A DNA stretch of 64,000 nucleotides from Bacteroidota bacterium (GCA_040389205.1 JAZKAL010000010.1:99697-163696), one strand, 5' to 3'. Positions 23,961-48,537 are shown, counted from the stretch's first letter. Notes: a model not told the origin generated them from the sequence alone. Numbers and translations are program-made.

Positions 23961-24815
23961 ATGAAGAAAAACAGACTTTTATTAGTAACTATAGCACTTA
24001 GCCTTTTAACGGCAGGTGCGTGTAAAAAATCAACAACCCCGGGTCCGGCAGGTCCAAAAGGCGAAGCAGGTGCAACGGGCGCTACCGGCGCTACTGGTGC
24101 GCAAGGGCCACAAGGCGCTACCGGCGCAGCCGGCCCTCAAGGCGCTACGGGAGCTACAGGTCCGCAAGGCGCTACGGGAGCAACGGGCCCCGCAGGACCA
24201 CAAGGCCCCGCAGGCCCTGCAGGCGGCCCGGTTGGCCCAACCGGTGCAACAGGCCCGCAAGGACCACAAGGCCCACAGGGTGAAAAAGGCGAAACCGGTG
24301 CAACAGGCCCGGCAGGTGCCACCGGCGCAACCGGCCCAACGGGTGCTACCGGTGCAACCGGCGCGCAAGGCCCAACCGGCCCAACAGGGGCTACCGGCGC
24401 AACAGGGCAAACAGGCGCTGCCGGCCAGGATGGTAAGGACGGGAAAGACGGCACTGCTAATGTGCAAAGTTTCTTATTGCCAAGTAAATCGGTAACATTA
24501 ACCGGTTTAAGCAGGCTAACCGTGCCTGCCATAACACAATCGGTAGTTGACCAGGGTATAGTGCTTGTATATTTTAGGGTAAGCGGATCGGGAACGGGAT
24601 ATTATGCGCTGCCATACAGCGAGGCCGACCGTACCTTAAGCGTATCTAACTATGGTGTTGGTTATGTTGATGTTAAAGCAAACTTTACAGCAACCGGGTT
24701 AGACTTTAGGGTTGTAGTAATAGCAGGGACATCATTAACTACATTATCTATATCACACCCTGGTTTAAATGTAAGGAATTTTAACCAGGTAGCTTCTACC
24801 TTCAGATTGCAATAG
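23961..24815 (+). CDS. Collagen-like lipoprotein
   Basis: Lipobox TAGAC, 46 Gly-X-Y triplets (20 + 26 with one single-Gly interruption), then a beta-rich C-terminal domain starting GTANV. Confidence 0.9.
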
Positions 24816-28559: not shown

Positions 28560-29327
28560 TTAAAACTCCAATTCAAGCAGCACGGGGCAATGGTCCGAGT
28601 GTTTTGCCTCCGGCAGGATAGCGCAACGCTTAATGTTTTCTTCAAGTTCGTTACTTGCCATGGCATAATCGATACGCCAGCCCAGGTTTTTACCACGTGC
28701 GCCCGAACGGAAGCTCCACCAGGTATAGTTATGGGGCTCTTTATTTACATGCCGGAAGGTATCTATAAACCCCGACTCTATAAAGTTCTCCATCCATTCG
28801 CGCTCTTCGGGCAAGAAGCCTGATGAGTTTGCATTTGATTTAGGGTTGTGGATGTCGATGGGTTTATGGCATATATTATAATCGCCGCATATTACCAGTT
28901 TAGGGTGTTCCACCTTTAACAAGGTAAGGTATTTGCCAAATTCGTCCAGGAAACGGTATTTAAAGATCTGCCTTTCATCGCCGCTTGAGCCGGAGGGGAA
29001 ATAGGCGCTCATTACCGATACCTCGTCAAAATCTACACGGATACAACGCCCTTCGCGGTCAAAGTCGGGGATGCCGCAGCCATATTCCACATGTTTAGGA
29101 GTGATTTTGCTAAAGATAGCCGTACCGCTGTAGCCCTTCTTTTCGGCCGGGAACCAGTAATGTTTATAACCTAATGCATCAACCAGGCCAAGTTCTTTAA
29201 TAACATCTGGCGTAGCCTTAATTTCCTGTAAGCACACTACGTCGGCATTGGTAGCCTGCAACCAGGCAAGCCAATCCTTATTTATTGCCGAGCGGATGCC
29301 GTTAACGTTATAGGTTATGATCTTCAT
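28560..29327 (-). CDS. xth: Exodeoxyribonuclease III (AP endonuclease)
   Basis: TYNVNGIRS, CLQEIKA, KKGYSG, YFPSG, GDYNICH, YTWWSFR, WRIDY, SDHCP. Confidence 0.96.
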   Translation of the reverse strand: MKIITYNVNGIRSAINKDWLAWLQATNADVVCLQEIKATPDVIKELGLVDALGYKHYWFPAEKKGYSGTAIFSKITPKHVEYGCGIPDFDREGRCIRVDFDEVSVMSAYFPSGSSGDERQIFKYRFLDEFGKYLTLLKVEHPKLVICGDYNICHKPIDIHNPKSNANSSGFLPEEREWMENFIESGFIDTFRHVNKEPHNYTWWSFRSGARGKNLGWRIDYAMASNELEENIKRCAILPEAKHSDHCPVLLELEF

Positions 29328-29368
29328 AGTTTATGGGCATCGTGCCTATGTATTTTTCATTTAGAAGT

Positions 29369-29462
29369 GGTGACAATACACTGTCACCATATTAAACTTA
29401 GAACAATTGATAATGAATGAGTTGCAAATTAATGGCTGCATGTGCAAACGTGAACGTGAACA
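29369..29462. repeat. 94-bp dispersed repeat, copy A
   Basis: 67/94 gapless identity to the reverse complement of 47023-47116, including a perfect 22-bp block tgtgcaaacgtgaacgtgaaca. GGTGAC-N8-GTCACC hairpin at the other end. Confidence 0.8.
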
Positions 29463-29472
29463 CAGGACGTCA

Positions 29473-30183
29473 TTATTTTGCCTTGGGCCATAGCAATTCG
29501 TCCATGTGTTTGCATTCCTTTTTACTCAGCAATTCCACCGTCATCGGGATGTTGGTATCCGGCCTGTCGCGTGCATCTTTTTTAACGGCAGCAATCTGGT
29601 CAACCATATCAATGCCGGTAACCACTTCGCCATAAACGGTGTAGTTTTGGTCGAGGTGAGGTACGCCGCCAACGGTGGTATAAATATCGCGCTGCCAGGT
29701 AGGTATCTTGCGGCCTTTAAGGCGTGTCATTTCTAAGGTATCCAATTTACCGTTGGTCCAGCGTTTGCCCTCTACAATGTAAAACTGGCATGCACTTGAT
29801 GCCTTTTTAGGGTTGTCTTCGCGCGCGGCGGCCAGTACGCCACGTTTGTGGAAAAGGCTGTCTTTAAACTCGGCGGGTACGGTATATTTCAAATCGCCAT
29901 TACCCAGCTCAACCCCGGGTTTGTTTTTAGCAGTATCGCGCGAATCAGGGTCTCCGCCCTGGATCATAAAGTTTTGTATGACACGGTGAAAAAGTGTGCC
30001 GTTATAAAAACCTTGTTTGGCAAGTTTTATAAAGTTATCGCGGTGTAGCGGTGTCTCATTATACAATCTTATAATTACACTGCCATAAGTTGTTTTGATG
30101 CGAACGTATTGGTTTTTGGGTGGTTTGGCAAAGGCAATACTTACAGTAAGCAGCAGCAAACAAAGGGTAAAAAATCTCTTCAT
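29473..30183 (-). CDS. Cyclophilin-type peptidyl-prolyl isomerase, exported
   Basis: Signal peptide, TPLHRDNF, FHRVIQNFMIQGGD, HKRGVLAAAR, QFYIV, PHLDQNYTVYGEV. Confidence 0.94.
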   Translation of the reverse strand: MKRFFTLCLLLLTVSIAFAKPPKNQYVRIKTTYGSVIIRLYNETPLHRDNFIKLAKQGFYNGTLFHRVIQNFMIQGGDPDSRDTAKNKPGVELGNGDLKYTVPAEFKDSLFHKRGVLAAAREDNPKKASSACQFYIVEGKRWTNGKLDTLEMTRLKGRKIPTWQRDIYTTVGGVPHLDQNYTVYGEVVTGIDMVDQIAAVKKDARDRPDTNIPMTVELLSKKECKHMDELLWPKAK

Positions 30184-44086: not shown

Positions 44087-46987
44087 ATGTTACGCGTAGA
44101 CAGCACCAAGCCCTGCCAAATAATTTATGCCATTGCCCGGCACGATTACCTGTCGTACGTTATAGAGCCGCATGTTGTTCAGCTAAACCCTAATGGCGAG
44201 TTTTCTTTTACCCACCAGCGCTTATTCTCAAACACAGCCGAGGAGTTTGCCGACTGCATTGATGATGCCGACCGCAAGCTGATCAAAATTTTAGAGGATA
44301 TAGAGCAGGGGAATGTTATCAAAAAATATTACAAGAAACCTATACGCCCGTTCGAGTTTTTTGCCAAGGTCTTTACCGATCAGCTTTTTGATACCATAAG
44401 GCCTAAAATCGAAAAGAAACTGGTAGAAGCATTGGCCCTGTTAGGCAGCGGTAACAAGCAAATTTACTTGATGAGCAAGGAGGGTTACCCCGCCGGCCGT
44501 AAGGTTCATATTGCAGATGAACCCGCCTCGGTATTGTTTCATTTCCGACGTAGCGAGGAAGAGATCCGCTACTTTCCTACCATTAAGTACCAGGGTATGC
44601 GCATCGAGTTTATGTATAAAGATGCCGAGATCATTTGCAACCACCCAGCCTGGATGCTGCTTGACGATACCCTTTACTATTTTGATAAGGAGATAGAAGG
44701 CAAAAAACTGCAGCCATTCCTTAATAAGCGTTTTATATCTATTCCAAAATCATCAGAGCAATCATACTTCGAGAAGTTTGTTGCCCCGCTGATAGAGAAA
44801 CATAACGTATACGCCGAGGGCTTTACCATCAATACCGAAAAGTATGATGCAACGGCATTCCTAAAACCCATATATGTAGAGGGCGGCACATCGCAGCTGC
44901 AACTGTATTTTAAATATGCAGGCTATATTTTCCCCTACGGGGATGGCAGGACGGTCTCCGTCCGCATGGAGAAAACAGGCGATGACTATCTTTTTCACCG
45001 AATAAAAAGATCGGTAACCTGGGAGAAGGGAAAGCTGGCGCAACTGGAAGCAATGGGTTTAAAAACCGTATCGTCACTGTTTCAGAATTTAGAGGTTGCC
45101 AACCACCACGAAGATGGCGACCGATCGTTCCCCGTGTTTGAGTGGTTAAACCAGCACCACGACGAATTGATTGAAAAAGGGTTTGAACTGGAACAACCCG
45201 ACGGGCAAAAGCGCTATGTTTTTGGTAACACCAAAATAGACCTGGAAATAAGCGAGAATAACGACTGGTTTGATATTAACGCCGTAGTTTACTTTGGCCC
45301 TTACCGCATTCCATTCATCCAGTTAAAAAACCACATACTAAACCATAAAAAAGAATTTGTGCTGCCATCCGGCGAGATAGCCGTGATACCCGAGAGCTGG
45401 TTTTCACAATACGGTAACTTGCTGCACTTTAGCGAGGGCGGCGACGAGCTAAAACTTCGCAGGCACCATATAGGCTTGGTTAACGAACTTGGCGATGGCG
45501 AAATGGCCGAGGTGGCTATGACACGCAAACTGCAAAAGCTTACAGATTTTGAAGAAACCGAAGATGTAGCCATGCCGGTAAACTTTGCAGGTAGCTTACG
45601 CCCCTATCAAAAGGCGGGTTATAACTGGTTCCATTTTTTAAAGGAGTACCATTTTGGCGGATGCCTTGCCGATGACATGGGCCTTGGTAAAACCATACAA
45701 ACCCTGGCCCTGCTGCAAAAACATAAAGAAGATACCGAAGCTGCCGGCAGCAAAGCCACATCGCTGGTTATTATGCCTACCTCGCTGATATATAACTGGC
45801 TTAATGAGGCAAAAAAATTCGCGCCGCAACTGAGGCTGATGGTGCATACCGGGGCTTTCCGTTACAAATCGGCAGAGGTGTTTGCTAATTACGATGTGGT
45901 GATAACTACCTACGGCATCAGCCGGATAGACATTGAAATGTTTAAGGCTTACTTTTTTGATTATGTGATACTGGATGAAAGCCAGAACATCAAAAACCCG
46001 TCGTCAAAATCGTTTCAGTCGGTGCGGCAGTTAAAATCGAGGTTTAAACTTATTTTGAGTGGTACGCCGGTAGAAAATTCGGTTAATGACCTTTGGACGC
46101 AGATGTCGTTTATTAATCCGGGCTTATTAGGCTCGCAGCAGTTTTTCCAGAACGAATTTGTAACTCCAATTGAGAAAAAGAAGGAGGAAGATAAAGCCCG
46201 CAAGCTACAGGCTATAATTAAACCATTTGTGCTGCGCCGTACCAAAGAGCAGGTAGCCACCGAGCTGCCGCCAAAAACCGAAAACCTTTTCTATTGCGAA
46301 ATGAGCGAAGAACAGGCCGAGGTGTACGACAAAGTAAAATCGGAATACCGCAACGAATTGCTGCGCAGTATTGAAGACGGCACCTACGCTAAAACGCAGA
46401 TACAGGTATTGCAGGGCTTAATTAAACTGCGCCAGATAGCCAATCACCCGGCTATGATCGATGGGGAATACGAAGGTGATAGCGGCAAATTTGAGAATGT
46501 GGTACATACCCTAGCCAATGTTTTGGATGGCGGGCATAAAGTGTTGGTGTTTTCGCAGTTTGTAAAGCAGCTTACCATATACCGGAACCATTTTGATAAA
46601 GAAGGCATCCCTTATGTTTATCTGGATGGTGGTACGCAAAACCGGGGCGATGTAGTTAAACAATTTCAGGAAGATAAAAAAACAAGGGTGTTTTTGATCT
46701 CAATTAAAGCGGGGGGTGTAGGGCTTAATTTAACCGAAGCCGATTACGTTTTTATCCTGGACCCATGGTGGAACCCGGCTGTTGAGCAACAGGCCATTGA
46801 CCGTACCCACCGCATTGGCCAAACCAAAAATGTGTTTATTTATAAGTTCATCACCAAAGATACGGTAGAAGAAAAGATACTGGCTTTGCAACAACGAAAG
46901 CTAAGCCTGTCGCGCGCGCTTATCACTACCGAAGACAGCTTTATTAAGTCGCTTACGGCTGATGATATTAAGGAAATATTGGGATAG
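44087..46987 (+). CDS. SNF2-family DEAD/DEAH helicase
   Basis: LRPYQ, LADDMGLGKT, LDESQNIK, LSGTPVEN, FVLRRTK, VLVFSQF, GGVGLNLT, DPWWNPAVEQQAIDRTHRIGQ. Confidence 0.96.
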   Translation: MLRVDSTKPCQIIYAIARHDYLSYVIEPHVVQLNPNGEFSFTHQRLFSNTAEEFADCIDDADRKLIKILEDIEQGNVIKKYYKKPIRPFEFFAKVFTDQLFDTIRPKIEKKLVEALALLGSGNKQIYLMSKEGYPAGRKVHIADEPASVLFHFRRSEEEIRYFPTIKYQGMRIEFMYKDAEIICNHPAWMLLDDTLYYFDKEIEGKKLQPFLNKRFISIPKSSEQSYFEKFVAPLIEKHNVYAEGFTINTEKYDATAFLKPIYVEGGTSQLQLYFKYAGYIFPYGDGRTVSVRMEKTGDDYLFHRIKRSVTWEKGKLAQLEAMGLKTVSSLFQNLEVANHHEDGDRSFPVFEWLNQHHDELIEKGFELEQPDGQKRYVFGNTKIDLEISENNDWFDINAVVYFGPYRIPFIQLKNHILNHKKEFVLPSGEIAVIPESWFSQYGNLLHFSEGGDELKLRRHHIGLVNELGDGEMAEVAMTRKLQKLTDFEETEDVAMPVNFAGSLRPYQKAGYNWFHFLKEYHFGGCLADDMGLGKTIQTLALLQKHKEDTEAAGSKATSLVIMPTSLIYNWLNEAKKFAPQLRLMVHTGAFRYKSAEVFANYDVVITTYGISRIDIEMFKAYFFDYVILDESQNIKNPSSKSFQSVRQLKSRFKLILSGTPVENSVNDLWTQMSFINPGLLGSQQFFQNEFVTPIEKKKEEDKARKLQAIIKPFVLRRTKEQVATELPPKTENLFYCEMSEEQAEVYDKVKSEYRNELLRSIEDGTYAKTQIQVLQGLIKLRQIANHPAMIDGEYEGDSGKFENVVHTLANVLDGGHKVLVFSQFVKQLTIYRNHFDKEGIPYVYLDGGTQNRGDVVKQFQEDKKTRVFLISIKAGGVGLNLTEADYVFILDPWWNPAVEQQAIDRTHRIGQTKNVFIYKFITKDTVEEKILALQQRKLSLSRALITTEDSFIKSLTADDIKEILG

Positions 46988-47022
46988 CCATACATGCAAA
47001 CCGGGCTCCGTACGACAACATA

Positions 47023-47116
47023 TGTTCACGTTCACGTTTGCACAACCAGGGTGTTTTTTGCAAGCGCCTTATAATCAGATGTTCTGATGTTAAATTGGTG
47101 ACAGTATTGCGACACC
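47023..47116. repeat. 94-bp dispersed repeat, copy B (inverted relative to copy A)
   Basis: Gapless match to 29369-29462 (67/94). Confidence 0.8.
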
Positions 47117-47143
47117 ATATCATATTTAAATAATTATATGAGT

Positions 47144-47268
47144 AATTCCCTCCCTCGGGAGGGTTAGGGAGGGGTTTCTACGCTTTGTTACCGCGCTTAT
47201 TTAAACGCGCCGAGAAACCCCTCCCTGCCAATGCCCAAGCCAACGCGCCCCTTCCCGGGGAGGGAATT
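47144..47268. repeat. CCCTCCC-type composite palindrome
   Basis: Termini aattccctccc / gggagggaatt; internal IR agggaggggtttct / agaaacccctccct; terminal sub-hairpins. Confidence 0.8.
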
Positions 47269-47285
47269 GTAAATACGGGCCAACA

Positions 47286-47325: not shown

Positions 47326-48537
47326 TTATTTCTTCGCTATCCTGTAAAGCTTCCCGCTATCGGTTAAGCCATACAAGGCACCATCTTTACCGGTTACCAG
47401 GGCGCGCCAGCGTTCGTTCTTATCCTTTAGTAAACGCTCCTCGCCAACTACTTTATTAGCACGGATAACCAGCCTGGCAATATGCTGCCCGCTTAAGCCG
47501 CCAACAAACAGGTTGTTCTTCCACTCGGCGATGTTGCCGGTATAAAAGGTTATGCCACCCGGAGATATGGTTGGGTCCCAATAGTAAATGGGCTGGGTTA
47601 CGCCTTCTTTTTGCTGTATGCCGTCGCCTACCTTTTCGCCGCTATATTCTATCCCGTAGGTAACCACCGGCCATCCAAAGTTACGGCCGGGTTTTATAAT
47701 GTTGATCTCGTCTCCGCCACGTGGTCCAAATTCAGCTTCCCAAAGCTCACCTGTCGCGGGGTTCCAGGCAAGCCCGTCGGGGTTGCGGATGCCGTATGCA
47801 TAAACCTCGGGCAGGGCGTTGGCTTTACCCGCAAATGGCCCGCCTGCAACGGCCTTACCGGCTTTAGTGATGTGGATGATCTTACCTATGCCCGCACTAA
47901 GATCCTGCGCCTTCATACGGATGTCGTTGCCGCTGCGTTCGCCGGTGCTGATGAACAAGTTGCCGGCCTTATCAAACACGATGCGGCAGCCATATTGTAA
48001 AGTTCCTTTATAAGCGGGTGTGGCACGATAGATCACTTCTACATTCTCTACCTTGCTTTCATCGGCCGAGAGCTTCCCTTTGGCAATAGCCAGTAACGAT
48101 CCACCTTCTGCTTGCTCGGCATAGCCCCAATAGATCATACGGTTTGTGCGGAATGCAGGGTCGATAGTTACATCAAGCAATCCGCCCTGCCCCTTAAACA
48201 CTATTGCAGGCAGGCCTGCAATTTGTTTATCAAATTCGCCGCCGGCTTTTAATATGCGCATGGTGCCACCCTTTTCGGTCACCAAAAAGCGGCCATCGGG
48301 TAATACATGAATGCCCCATGGGTTTTTAAGCGTGCTGTTGATAACCGTTGCTGTGTAAGGGGTTTTTGTTTTTATACCGCCAATACGCGTTTGCCCGCGA
48401 AATGCAGGTTTGTAATTGGTATTAGGGTTTTGAGTTTCTACCGGCGCAAGCGTGGTGTCGCGGGTTTCTGCATAACCTGCCGAGACCATCGCAGATAGGC
48501 CCATCAGCAATAGAGCTTTTTTATAATACATCATCAT
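47326..48537 (-). CDS. PQQ-dependent sugar dehydrogenase (glucose/sorbosone dehydrogenase family), exported
   Basis: Signal peptide, PWGI, GQGGLLDV, YGIRNPDGL, EFGPRGGDEIN, NFGWP, beta-propeller pattern. Confidence 0.9.
   Translation of the reverse strand: MMMYYKKALLLMGLSAMVSAGYAETRDTTLAPVETQNPNTNYKPAFRGQTRIGGIKTKTPYTATVINSTLKNPWGIHVLPDGRFLVTEKGGTMRILKAGGEFDKQIAGLPAIVFKGQGGLLDVTIDPAFRTNRMIYWGYAEQAEGGSLLAIAKGKLSADESKVENVEVIYRATPAYKGTLQYGCRIVFDKAGNLFISTGERSGNDIRMKAQDLSAGIGKIIHITKAGKAVAGGPFAGKANALPEVYAYGIRNPDGLAWNPATGELWEAEFGPRGGDEINIIKPGRNFGWPVVTYGIEYSGEKVGDGIQQKEGVTQPIYYWDPTISPGGITFYTGNIAEWKNNLFVGGLSGQHIARLVIRANKVVGEERLLKDKNERWRALVTGKDGALYGLTDSGKLYRIAKK

Follow-up and report, generated by a model that had tools for sequence, protein, structure and literature searches.

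What kind of element is the short intergenic repeat that occurs twice, on opposite strands, in the 64,000-nt stretch of Bacteroidota DNA analysed here (the window, C10:99697-163696 of the 4.6-Mb, 28-contig assembly of the genome studied, G000)? An earlier note on this DNA had described copy A (29369-29462, minus strand) and copy B (47023-47116, plus strand) as a gapless dispersed repeat with conserved blocks, and we obtained the same alignment at 67/94 identity, with the 22-mer TGTTCACGTTCACGTTTGCACA perfect in both copies (0 matches expected from 100 shuffles) and the blocks TTGCAA and TGTTCT present in each. The 22-mer begins 10 nt after the cyclophilin open reading frame (ORF end 29473) and 35 nt after the SNF2 ORF (end 46987), as had been stated, and it has no further match in the window with up to 3 mismatches allowed. 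The terminal GGTGAC-N8-GTCACC hairpin stands only in part, being perfect in copy A but reading GGTGAC-N8-GACACC in copy B and being unpairable in half of the genome's copies. Copy A fills its spacer closely: its leader begins with the final two bases of the cyclophilin stop codon, and its tail ends at the ATG of the exonuclease III-like gene (Table 1).

Table 1. Modules of the two copies and their neighbouring genes, in window coordinates.
Feature	Position	Strand	Remarks
Copy A, 5' leader AATGACGTCCTG	29463..29474	-	Family motif GAC[G/A]NC upstream of the core; left junction from the empty-site comparison with G015/G071
Copy A, 22-mer core TGTTCACGTTCACGTTTGCACA	29441..29462	-	First 14 nt invariant in all species, last 8 nt lineage-specific
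Copy A, variable spacer with blocks CAG, TTTGCAA, T.ATAATCA-N4-TT, TTTAA	29391..29440	-	AT-rich; some family copies with an IHF-consensus-like word
Copy A, 3' block T-GG-TGACA-N7-G-T-CACCA	29368..29390	-	Palindromic in copy A
Copy A, tail (A/T-rich word and small hairpin, 29332-29350), arrived with the insertion	29328..29367	-	Whole 145-nt spacer absent in G015, G071
Copy B, 5' leader CGACAACATA	47013..47022	+	Flank further upstream (CCATAC...CCGTA) also in element-free G013
Copy B, 22-mer core	47023..47044	+	
Copy B, variable spacer	47045..47094	+	Conserved blocks and distances as in copy A
Copy B, 3' block TTGGTGACA-N7-GACACCA	47095..47117	+	Imperfect palindrome
Exonuclease III-like gene (Exo_endo_phos)	28560..29327	-	Directly downstream of copy A
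Cyclophilin-type gene	29473..30183	-	Directly upstream of copy A
SNF2-family helicase gene	44087..46987	+	Upstream of copy B; convergent with a 403-aa gene, 47326-48537 (minus)

The repeat is not limited to these two copies. G000 contains 29 copies with at most one mismatch in the 22-mer and about 5 that are diverged or partial (one full-length copy whose second half has diverged and four partial ones were added by a profile search of the genome), all of them intergenic, with 0/30 inside ORFs. The fixed geometry reported for the two window copies extends to the whole set, as the distance from the start of the core to the end of CACCA is 95 nt in 21/29 copies and 94-96 nt in 29/29. In the 29-copy alignment, a leader made of an A-run, GAC[G/A]NC and 3-4 nt, or of AGGCAGAAAA, lies just upstream of the core; the 22-mer is followed, in this order, by CAG, a T-run with GCAA, T.ATAATCA-N4-TT, TTTAAA and T(GG/AC)TGACA-N7-G.CACCA. 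Two tandem GTTCAC hexamers sit inside the invariant first 14 nt, TGTTCACGTTCACG, and TG.C and G.CACCA of the 3' block are invariant in 29/29 copies. The dyad of the 3' block is not conserved: about half of the 29 copies read TACTGACA...GCCACCA, which does not pair, and a compensatory change was seen in one copy only. A strict match to the IHF-like word WATCAANNNNTTR occurs at one position in 8/29 copies, against 0.17 expected, and a relaxed one in 14/29, with the reservation that this consensus is proteobacterial and may not apply to Bacteroidota. The conserved part of the element measures about 110 nt, and the unit as inserted about 150 nt.

In the same genome, other 5' modules are linked to the 3' block as well, at C15:63100-63700 and C2:223929. 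The former region carries two tandem units about 145 nt apart, consisting of AATTC-type short arrays bracketed by GTCTGAAC/GTTCAGAC, and both units end in CTACTGACA-N7-GTCACCA, the 3' block of the element studied here. Two closely similar copies were also seen at the end of C6 (189408) and the start of C18 (91), less than 200 nt from the contig ends. The assembly is probably interrupted at these points by a longer repeat of which they are part, and the family would in this way account for assembly breaks near some copies.

We compared the location of the copies with that of the neighbouring genes. The earlier note had proposed that the repeat is placed behind stop codons in the same orientation, a rule that does not carry over to the family: it holds for 16/28 copies, which begin no more than about 35 nt after a same-strand upstream stop codon, and this amounts to no orientation bias. 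In G000, 17 of the spacers are co-directional, 8 convergent and 3 divergent, and the 60 classifiable loci of other Mucilaginibacter genomes divide into 24, 30 and 6, respectively, while the length-weighted spacer baseline is 57% co-directional, 16% convergent and 26% divergent. Pooled, convergent spacers are enriched (38/88, 43%, versus 16%; p=3e-9) and divergent ones depleted (9/88 versus 26%; p=2e-4). Within co-directional spacers, the element lies sense and antisense equally often, and only 13/30 copies have a same-strand gene downstream. The convergent excess together with the divergent depletion is a pattern of the REP/BIME type and argues against a promoter role. Between copy B and its convergent gene (window 47150-47270), we also observed a GC-rich palindromic cluster (TCCCTCCCTCGGGAGGGTTAGGGAGGGG ... 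CCCTTCCCGGGGAGGGAA). The same CCCTC/GAGGG type of repeat occupies the orthologous position in G057 and G008, other spacers of G043 and G047 contain it too, and it forms a second, separate repeat family.

Two readings would have the element act through transcription. According to one of them, it belongs to a small-RNA or 3'-UTR RNA family in which the 22-mer is an RNA seed or a protein-binding RNA site. The copies are intergenic regardless of the orientation of their neighbours, many of them closely follow a same-strand stop, the element lies at one locus between a stop codon and a terminator hairpin conserved in four species, and strong hairpins occur in relatives (the compact variant of G043 folds with z -3.4 to -4.0). 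The structured RNA motif suggested by the earlier note nonetheless finds no support in G000. An Rfam scan of window 28-49 kb left copies A and B unmatched even at E<=10, and a scan of the relatives' loci left the element unmatched as well. RNAalifold on 29 copies gave -1.9 kcal/mol, with six invariant pairs within the 22-mer, of which 0/6 covary, and the fold z score against dinucleotide shuffles averaged -0.05 on the forward strand and -0.43 on the reverse, being about 0 in G047 too. The 3' hairpin is broken in half of the copies without compensation, half of the co-directional copies are antisense to both neighbours, and the Bacteroidota -7 box TAnnTTTG showed no positional pile-up on either strand from -200 to +350 around 105 elements. 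We consider an RNA family quite improbable for these reasons. A small protein was also rejected, with an open reading frame in no more than 9/29 copies for any frame.

The other transcriptional reading, a promoter or operator shared by a regulon, seems to us less probable again. Here the GTTCAC repeats would serve as an operator or activator site, the AT-rich segment as a bend and the 3' block as part of an alternative-sigma promoter, an arrangement of repeat site, bend and distal block that recalls enhancer-dependent promoters. Copy B TGGTGACAGTATTGC fits GG-N10-GC, weak A/T-rich and TATA-like words 20-28 nt past CACCA are kept between orthologs, and a gene starts 42 nt downstream of copy A. 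Yet half of the copies have TAC in place of the GG required by sigma-54, and such a promoter was rejected by eye for the lack of GG in these copies. Sites found by scans for sigma-70-type promoters and terminators around copies A and B were no commoner than in shuffled controls, and a canonical -7 box is missing as described above. To these must be added the depletion of divergent spacers, the enrichment of convergent ones and the few same-strand downstream genes. A regulon theme was likewise rejected, as ten downstream same-strand genes had no common function in a Pfam search (2OG oxygenase, AAA_25, lactonase, PMT_2, Exo_endo_phos, SnoaL, metallophosphatase, GFO/IDH and PNPOx-like, the tenth having no Pfam family).

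The family is confined to a part of one genus. The exact 22-mer was not found in 40 relatives, and a sequence model detected the family in 22/61 Mucilaginibacter genomes, of which G047, G015 and G008 each have about 40 copies and G014, G057, G074 and G075 have 10-18; the element was found in none of 36 other genera of the same family. The 13-mer GTTCACGTTCACG has 17-40 copies in about 10/151 genomes of the genus (among them G000, G008, G015, G043, G047, G057, G228, G238 and G281), 4-10 in about 8 more and 0-1 elsewhere, the reversed 13-mer used as a control giving 0-1 per genome. In a scan of bacteria and archaea with one genome per species, multiple matches per genome were seen only in Mucilaginibacter among the matches listed (M. 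sp. UYP27, M. aquariorum, M. phyllosphaerae and MAGs), with one match each for M. conchicola, M. rigui and M. aurantiaciroseus, again among the matches listed. The genomes nearest to G000 by cyclophilin identity (88-92%) are the element-rich G015, G047, G008 and G057, and the family is missing from the next nearest, G013, G071 and G006. We found no literature that describes GTTCACGTTCAC in a relevant context or intergenic repeats of this sort in Mucilaginibacter or Sphingobacteriia. This interspersed mosaic intergenic repeat of Mucilaginibacter is a previously undescribed, genus-restricted extragenic family.

Only (A/G)TGTTCACGTTCACG is invariant across species. The bases that come after the 14-mer are uniform inside one genome and different between species. 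In G015 and G008, TGTTCACGTTCACG is followed by GCCGTGAAC, which creates the hairpin GTTCACGGCCGTGAAC (GTTCAC/GTGAAC), often with more GTGAAC units behind it, and there is no such hairpin in G000. A compact form in G043 and G238 consists of cAGGT-GTTCACGTTCACG-GGTGGT or GGAGGC-(GTGAACNNNN) x 2-7-CTGACA-N6-TGTCAG and has no AT-rich spacer. As the module arrangement differs between lineages, the family can be described as a mosaic. It also provides a natural experiment, since the same loci can be compared as hairpin, compact tandem-array and fold-less perfect-22-mer (G000) versions, which separates sequence recognition from structure. On the complete chromosome of G043, 25/26 copies lie within 0.16-2.75 Mb and none in the 1.17 Mb from 2.75 to 3.92 Mb, a distribution that may reflect a chromosome-domain bias or chance.

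For at least 14/30 of the G000 loci, other species carry an element in the orthologous position, in a sample of 20 G047, 10 G015 and 10 G008 loci plus single loci from G057 and G014. Identity over core positions 1-14 is 1.00 within G000, within G015 and between G000 and either G047 or G015. Over positions 15-22 it is 0.99 within G000 and 0.88 within G015, 0.92 between G000 and G047, and 0.23 between G000 and G015. The 30 nt past CACCA are clearly orthologous: positions 95-110 are 0.74 identical in orthologs versus 0.39 in non-orthologs for G047 (0.61 versus 0.41 for G015), and positions 111-125 are 0.66 versus 0.39 (0.58 versus 0.37). Inside the element, the variable positions are near the paralog background in ortholog comparisons. 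Orthologous flanks combined with drifted variable positions indicate that the copies are old residents of their spacers in which the blocks have been held.

On these resident copies, the segment beside the invariant word has changed alike in all copies of one lineage. The uniform tract of G000 runs on to ACCAG in 19/29 copies, and several G047 orthologs differ there. Such homogeneity requires that gene conversion starts from the identical core or that a binding protein has co-evolved with the repeat, and we favour neither over the other. What homogenises dispersed 100-nt repeats at vertically inherited loci is a question that this family raises.

The two window copies differ in age. The cyclophilin/exonuclease III-like gene pair is syntenic at 30/30 relatives' loci examined, and copy A is missing from the four nearest relatives; three of these, G047, G057 and G008, have repeats of unrelated kinds in that position. 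The two genes (cyp and xth) overlap by ATGA in G015 and G071, with the same C-terminus LWPKVK, whereas the 145-nt cyp-xth spacer of G000 consists of the element and its 40-nt tail and nothing else. Copy A was therefore gained in the G000 lineage. Comparison of the occupied site with the empty site of G015/G071 shows at most an ambiguous 'AT' target duplication. Copy B is present in G000, G047 and G015 and absent in G057 and G008; it is older than the gain of copy A. The flank upstream of its leader persists in the element-free G013, which places the 5' boundary about 10 nt before the core. At one further site, G015 has an element that G000 lacks, the two sequences differing by about 156 nt, and the junctions at this site are too diverged to be read. 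The cyp-xth spacer is in itself an insertion hot spot. Over 30 Mucilaginibacter genomes (loci L209-L238), it varies from a 4-nt overlap to about 500 nt and is filled by at least four unrelated types of sequence: the element studied here, CCCCTTnAGGGGG palindromes, ATCCGAAAT/TTCGGAT heptamer arrays and GTCATTTCGAACGAG-type long hairpins.

A search for a partner protein or a mobile parent gave negative results. In G000, no transposase or IS has the same ends, every 13-mer lies inside an element, and the additional 3' blocks are in coding DNA or in other repeats. Terminal inverted repeats are lacking too, as the 5' end reads GAC[G/A]NC plus TGTTCACG and the 3' end TGACA-N7-G.CACCA plus a variable tail. 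The sequence is neither a two-copy repeat nor a match to a known IS end or Rfam family, the outcomes that the earlier note had considered fatal to its proposal. A link to RAYT proteins was rejected, because the Y1_Tnp-like loci of G000 (C7:41416 and C2:63955) are far from any copy, and Y1_Tnp occurs in 134/151 genomes of the genus irrespective of the presence of the element. The region C7:41300-41850 holds a RAYT-like Y1 gene preceded by three copies of its own REP (AGCGATGGGT-N-ACCCATCGCT), which constitutes a separate REP-RAYT system, and the second Y1 gene, at C2:63955, appears to be frameshifted. A protein of the S23p four-helix-bundle type (23S_rRNA_IVP, PF05635) is no better as a partner: 0/7 such loci of G000 adjoin a copy, and PF05635 also occurs in element-free genomes.

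Two arrangements that could have been composite transposons were rejected. Between the members of the closest back-to-back pair, in G043, lie ordinary genes such as that for glycyl-tRNA synthetase and no transposase, and a close pair in G047 is explained by a tandem gene triplication that carried the element along. This G047 locus (L239, G047:C4:250500-255500) contains three tandem paralogous lipoprotein-like genes (256, 229 and 223 aa), and in front of each lie a small hairpin and the element, either as a regular or as a diverged copy.

Compared with known systems, the element behaves most like BIME/RIP and BOX sequences, and it lacks what defines a REP-RAYT pair, a MITE or an Rfam family. 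With the BIME/RIP elements (REP-IHF-REP) of E. coli and relatives it shares a short, non-coding and strictly extragenic sequence in tens to hundreds of copies, a bias to gene 3' ends and convergent spacers, the retention of some loci between species, and a repeat that is uniform within a genome and different between related species. It is also a mosaic of few modules with an AT-rich centre and, in some copies, a word like the proteobacterial IHF consensus. Unlike REP, the G000 element is non-palindromic and has no folding excess (stable hairpins being a feature only of the compact variant of other species, as in G043), its conserved unit is a tandem hexamer word instead of a GTAG-headed hairpin, and there are about 30 copies, not hundreds. 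It also departs from REP/REPIN-RAYT systems in that no RAYT is adjacent, the RAYT-like gene of the genome having the unrelated REP AGCGATGGGT...ACCCATCGCT. The BOX elements of Streptococcus pneumoniae (boxA-boxB(n)-boxC) are similarly modular intergenic repeats with fixed end modules, without coding capacity or a known transposase, and with a variable number of internal short units, to which the 2 to 7 repetitions of GTGAACNNNN in the compact variant of G043 and G238 correspond. BOX comes from another phylum and is unrelated in sequence, however; it is predicted to form stable RNA or DNA structures, unlike the G000 element, and the window variant has a fixed 95-nt geometry in place of a tandem internal unit.

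Correia elements, MITEs of Neisseria of about 100-155 bp with an IHF site, resemble the element in size, in the central IHF-like word, in intergenic spread, in presence or absence at orthologous sites and in insertion directly beside start and stop codons. They differ from it in that it has no terminal inverted repeats, only the ambiguous AT duplication, no parent IS with matching ends, and mostly old, positionally conserved copies. The heptamer hairpin arrays (STRR-like) of Mucilaginibacter spacers share the genus and the type of spacer; the compact variant is, like them, a short-unit array with a complementary array, and the TGACA...CACCA block stands beside an AATTC-type array as well (C15:63100-63700). 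In contrast to them, the element has a fixed left arm of 2 x 6 nt that is invariant across species, its arrays are asymmetric (6-nt versus 10-nt period), the complementary array is gone in G000, and copies do not adjoin S23p four-helix-bundle genes.

Taking these data together, we think that the repeat is, on balance, probably a non-coding, non-autonomous, Mucilaginibacter-restricted interspersed mosaic element, putatively recognised by a protein and rarely mobile. Two suggestions of the earlier note agree with this: a protein-binding site with fixed phasing, given that what is conserved are sequence blocks at fixed distances and not pairings, and a non-autonomous mobile element, given that presence and absence differ at orthologous sites. 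Its modules are a short leader, the 14-mer TGTTCACGTTCACG with a lineage-specific segment, an AT-rich spacer, and TGACA-N7-G.CACCA at a fixed distance. In G000, it probably acts as double-stranded DNA rather than as a folded RNA, with the 14-mer as the putative recognition site of a sequence-specific protein and the AT-rich centre and 3' block as accessory sites, possibly for a bending protein of the HU/IHF kind. Copies would be gained rarely and would survive mainly away from promoters, at gene 3' ends and especially between convergent genes, and selection for binding, short-tract gene conversion or both could keep the core identical within a genome. Counted against this reading are the lack of terminal inverted repeats, of an IS with the same ends and of an adjacent Y1/RAYT gene. 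So are the perfect 14-mer and blocks at orthologous loci whose neutral positions are saturated, which point to a function at the level of the host rather than to mere parasitism.

The last point is shared by a different reading, in which the copies are no mobile element but a set of about 30 host sites, architectural or regulatory, for a nucleoid-associated or topology-managing protein; gyrase or IHF on BIMEs and the matS, SlmA and Noc sites are models for it. We regard this as possible although rather unlikely. On this reading, the sites would insulate convergent units or relieve supercoiling between them, would be maintained by purifying selection and would be gained by ordinary recombination. 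The invariance of the 14-mer, TGAC and CACCA at orthologous loci where variable positions have drifted to background is what such a set would show, as are the convergent-spacer excess, a geometry fixed within 1 nt and the absence of transposon hallmarks. But the distribution is patchy and clade-limited in the genus, with differing module layouts; the whole 145-nt unit was gained in a spacer that is hot for insertions of unrelated repeats; the 3' module is reused in other repeat families, and no cognate protein was identified. A role in replication polarity, of the KOPS or Ter type, was rejected, with 12/25 copies following the GC skew, and this also weighs against a host-site set. The copies might alternatively be att-like recombination sites, with GTTCAC arms, an AT-rich bend and a TGACA-N6-8-TGTCA dyad as the core of a tyrosine recombinase, similar to half of an attP. 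The succession of arm, bend and core sites, the homogeneity of the core within a genome and the dyad, whose spacer is 6-8 nt long in the compact variant and in some of the copies, speak for this reading, which we nevertheless find very improbable: the dyad is not conserved in half of the copies, no recombinase gene is consistently adjacent, and some 30 active sites pointing both ways would be expected to scramble the chromosome, while synteny is conserved at the loci examined.

A more specific version of the favoured reading, a rarely mobile element recognised by a protein, would make the 14-mer the recognition and perhaps nicking site of an enzyme or protein that is neither RAYT nor IS-encoded and that both seeds rare new copies and drives short-tract gene conversion beside its site. 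We consider it unlikely. An activity of this kind would account for the joint switch of about 30 dispersed, vertically inherited loci from GTTCACG-GCCGTGAAC to GTTCACG-TTTGCACA in one lineage, with the remainder of each copy drifting independently. If true, it would represent a new repeat-and-protein partnership in Bacteroidota and a case of site-anchored concerted evolution.

Interspersed extragenic repeats have been studied extensively in Proteobacteria and Firmicutes but very little in Bacteroidota. Should the elements prove to be bound by a nucleoid or topology protein between convergent genes, they would be a Bacteroidota counterpart of the BIME-gyrase/IHF sites. For annotation, the 14-mer marks about 30 spacers per genome, which should not be called sRNAs or promoters without evidence.

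Elsewhere in the window (24051-24427), we observed 9-nt-phased GGN-NNN-NNN repeats, with 19 overlapping 50-nt copies, that would encode a collagen-like Gly-X-Y segment.
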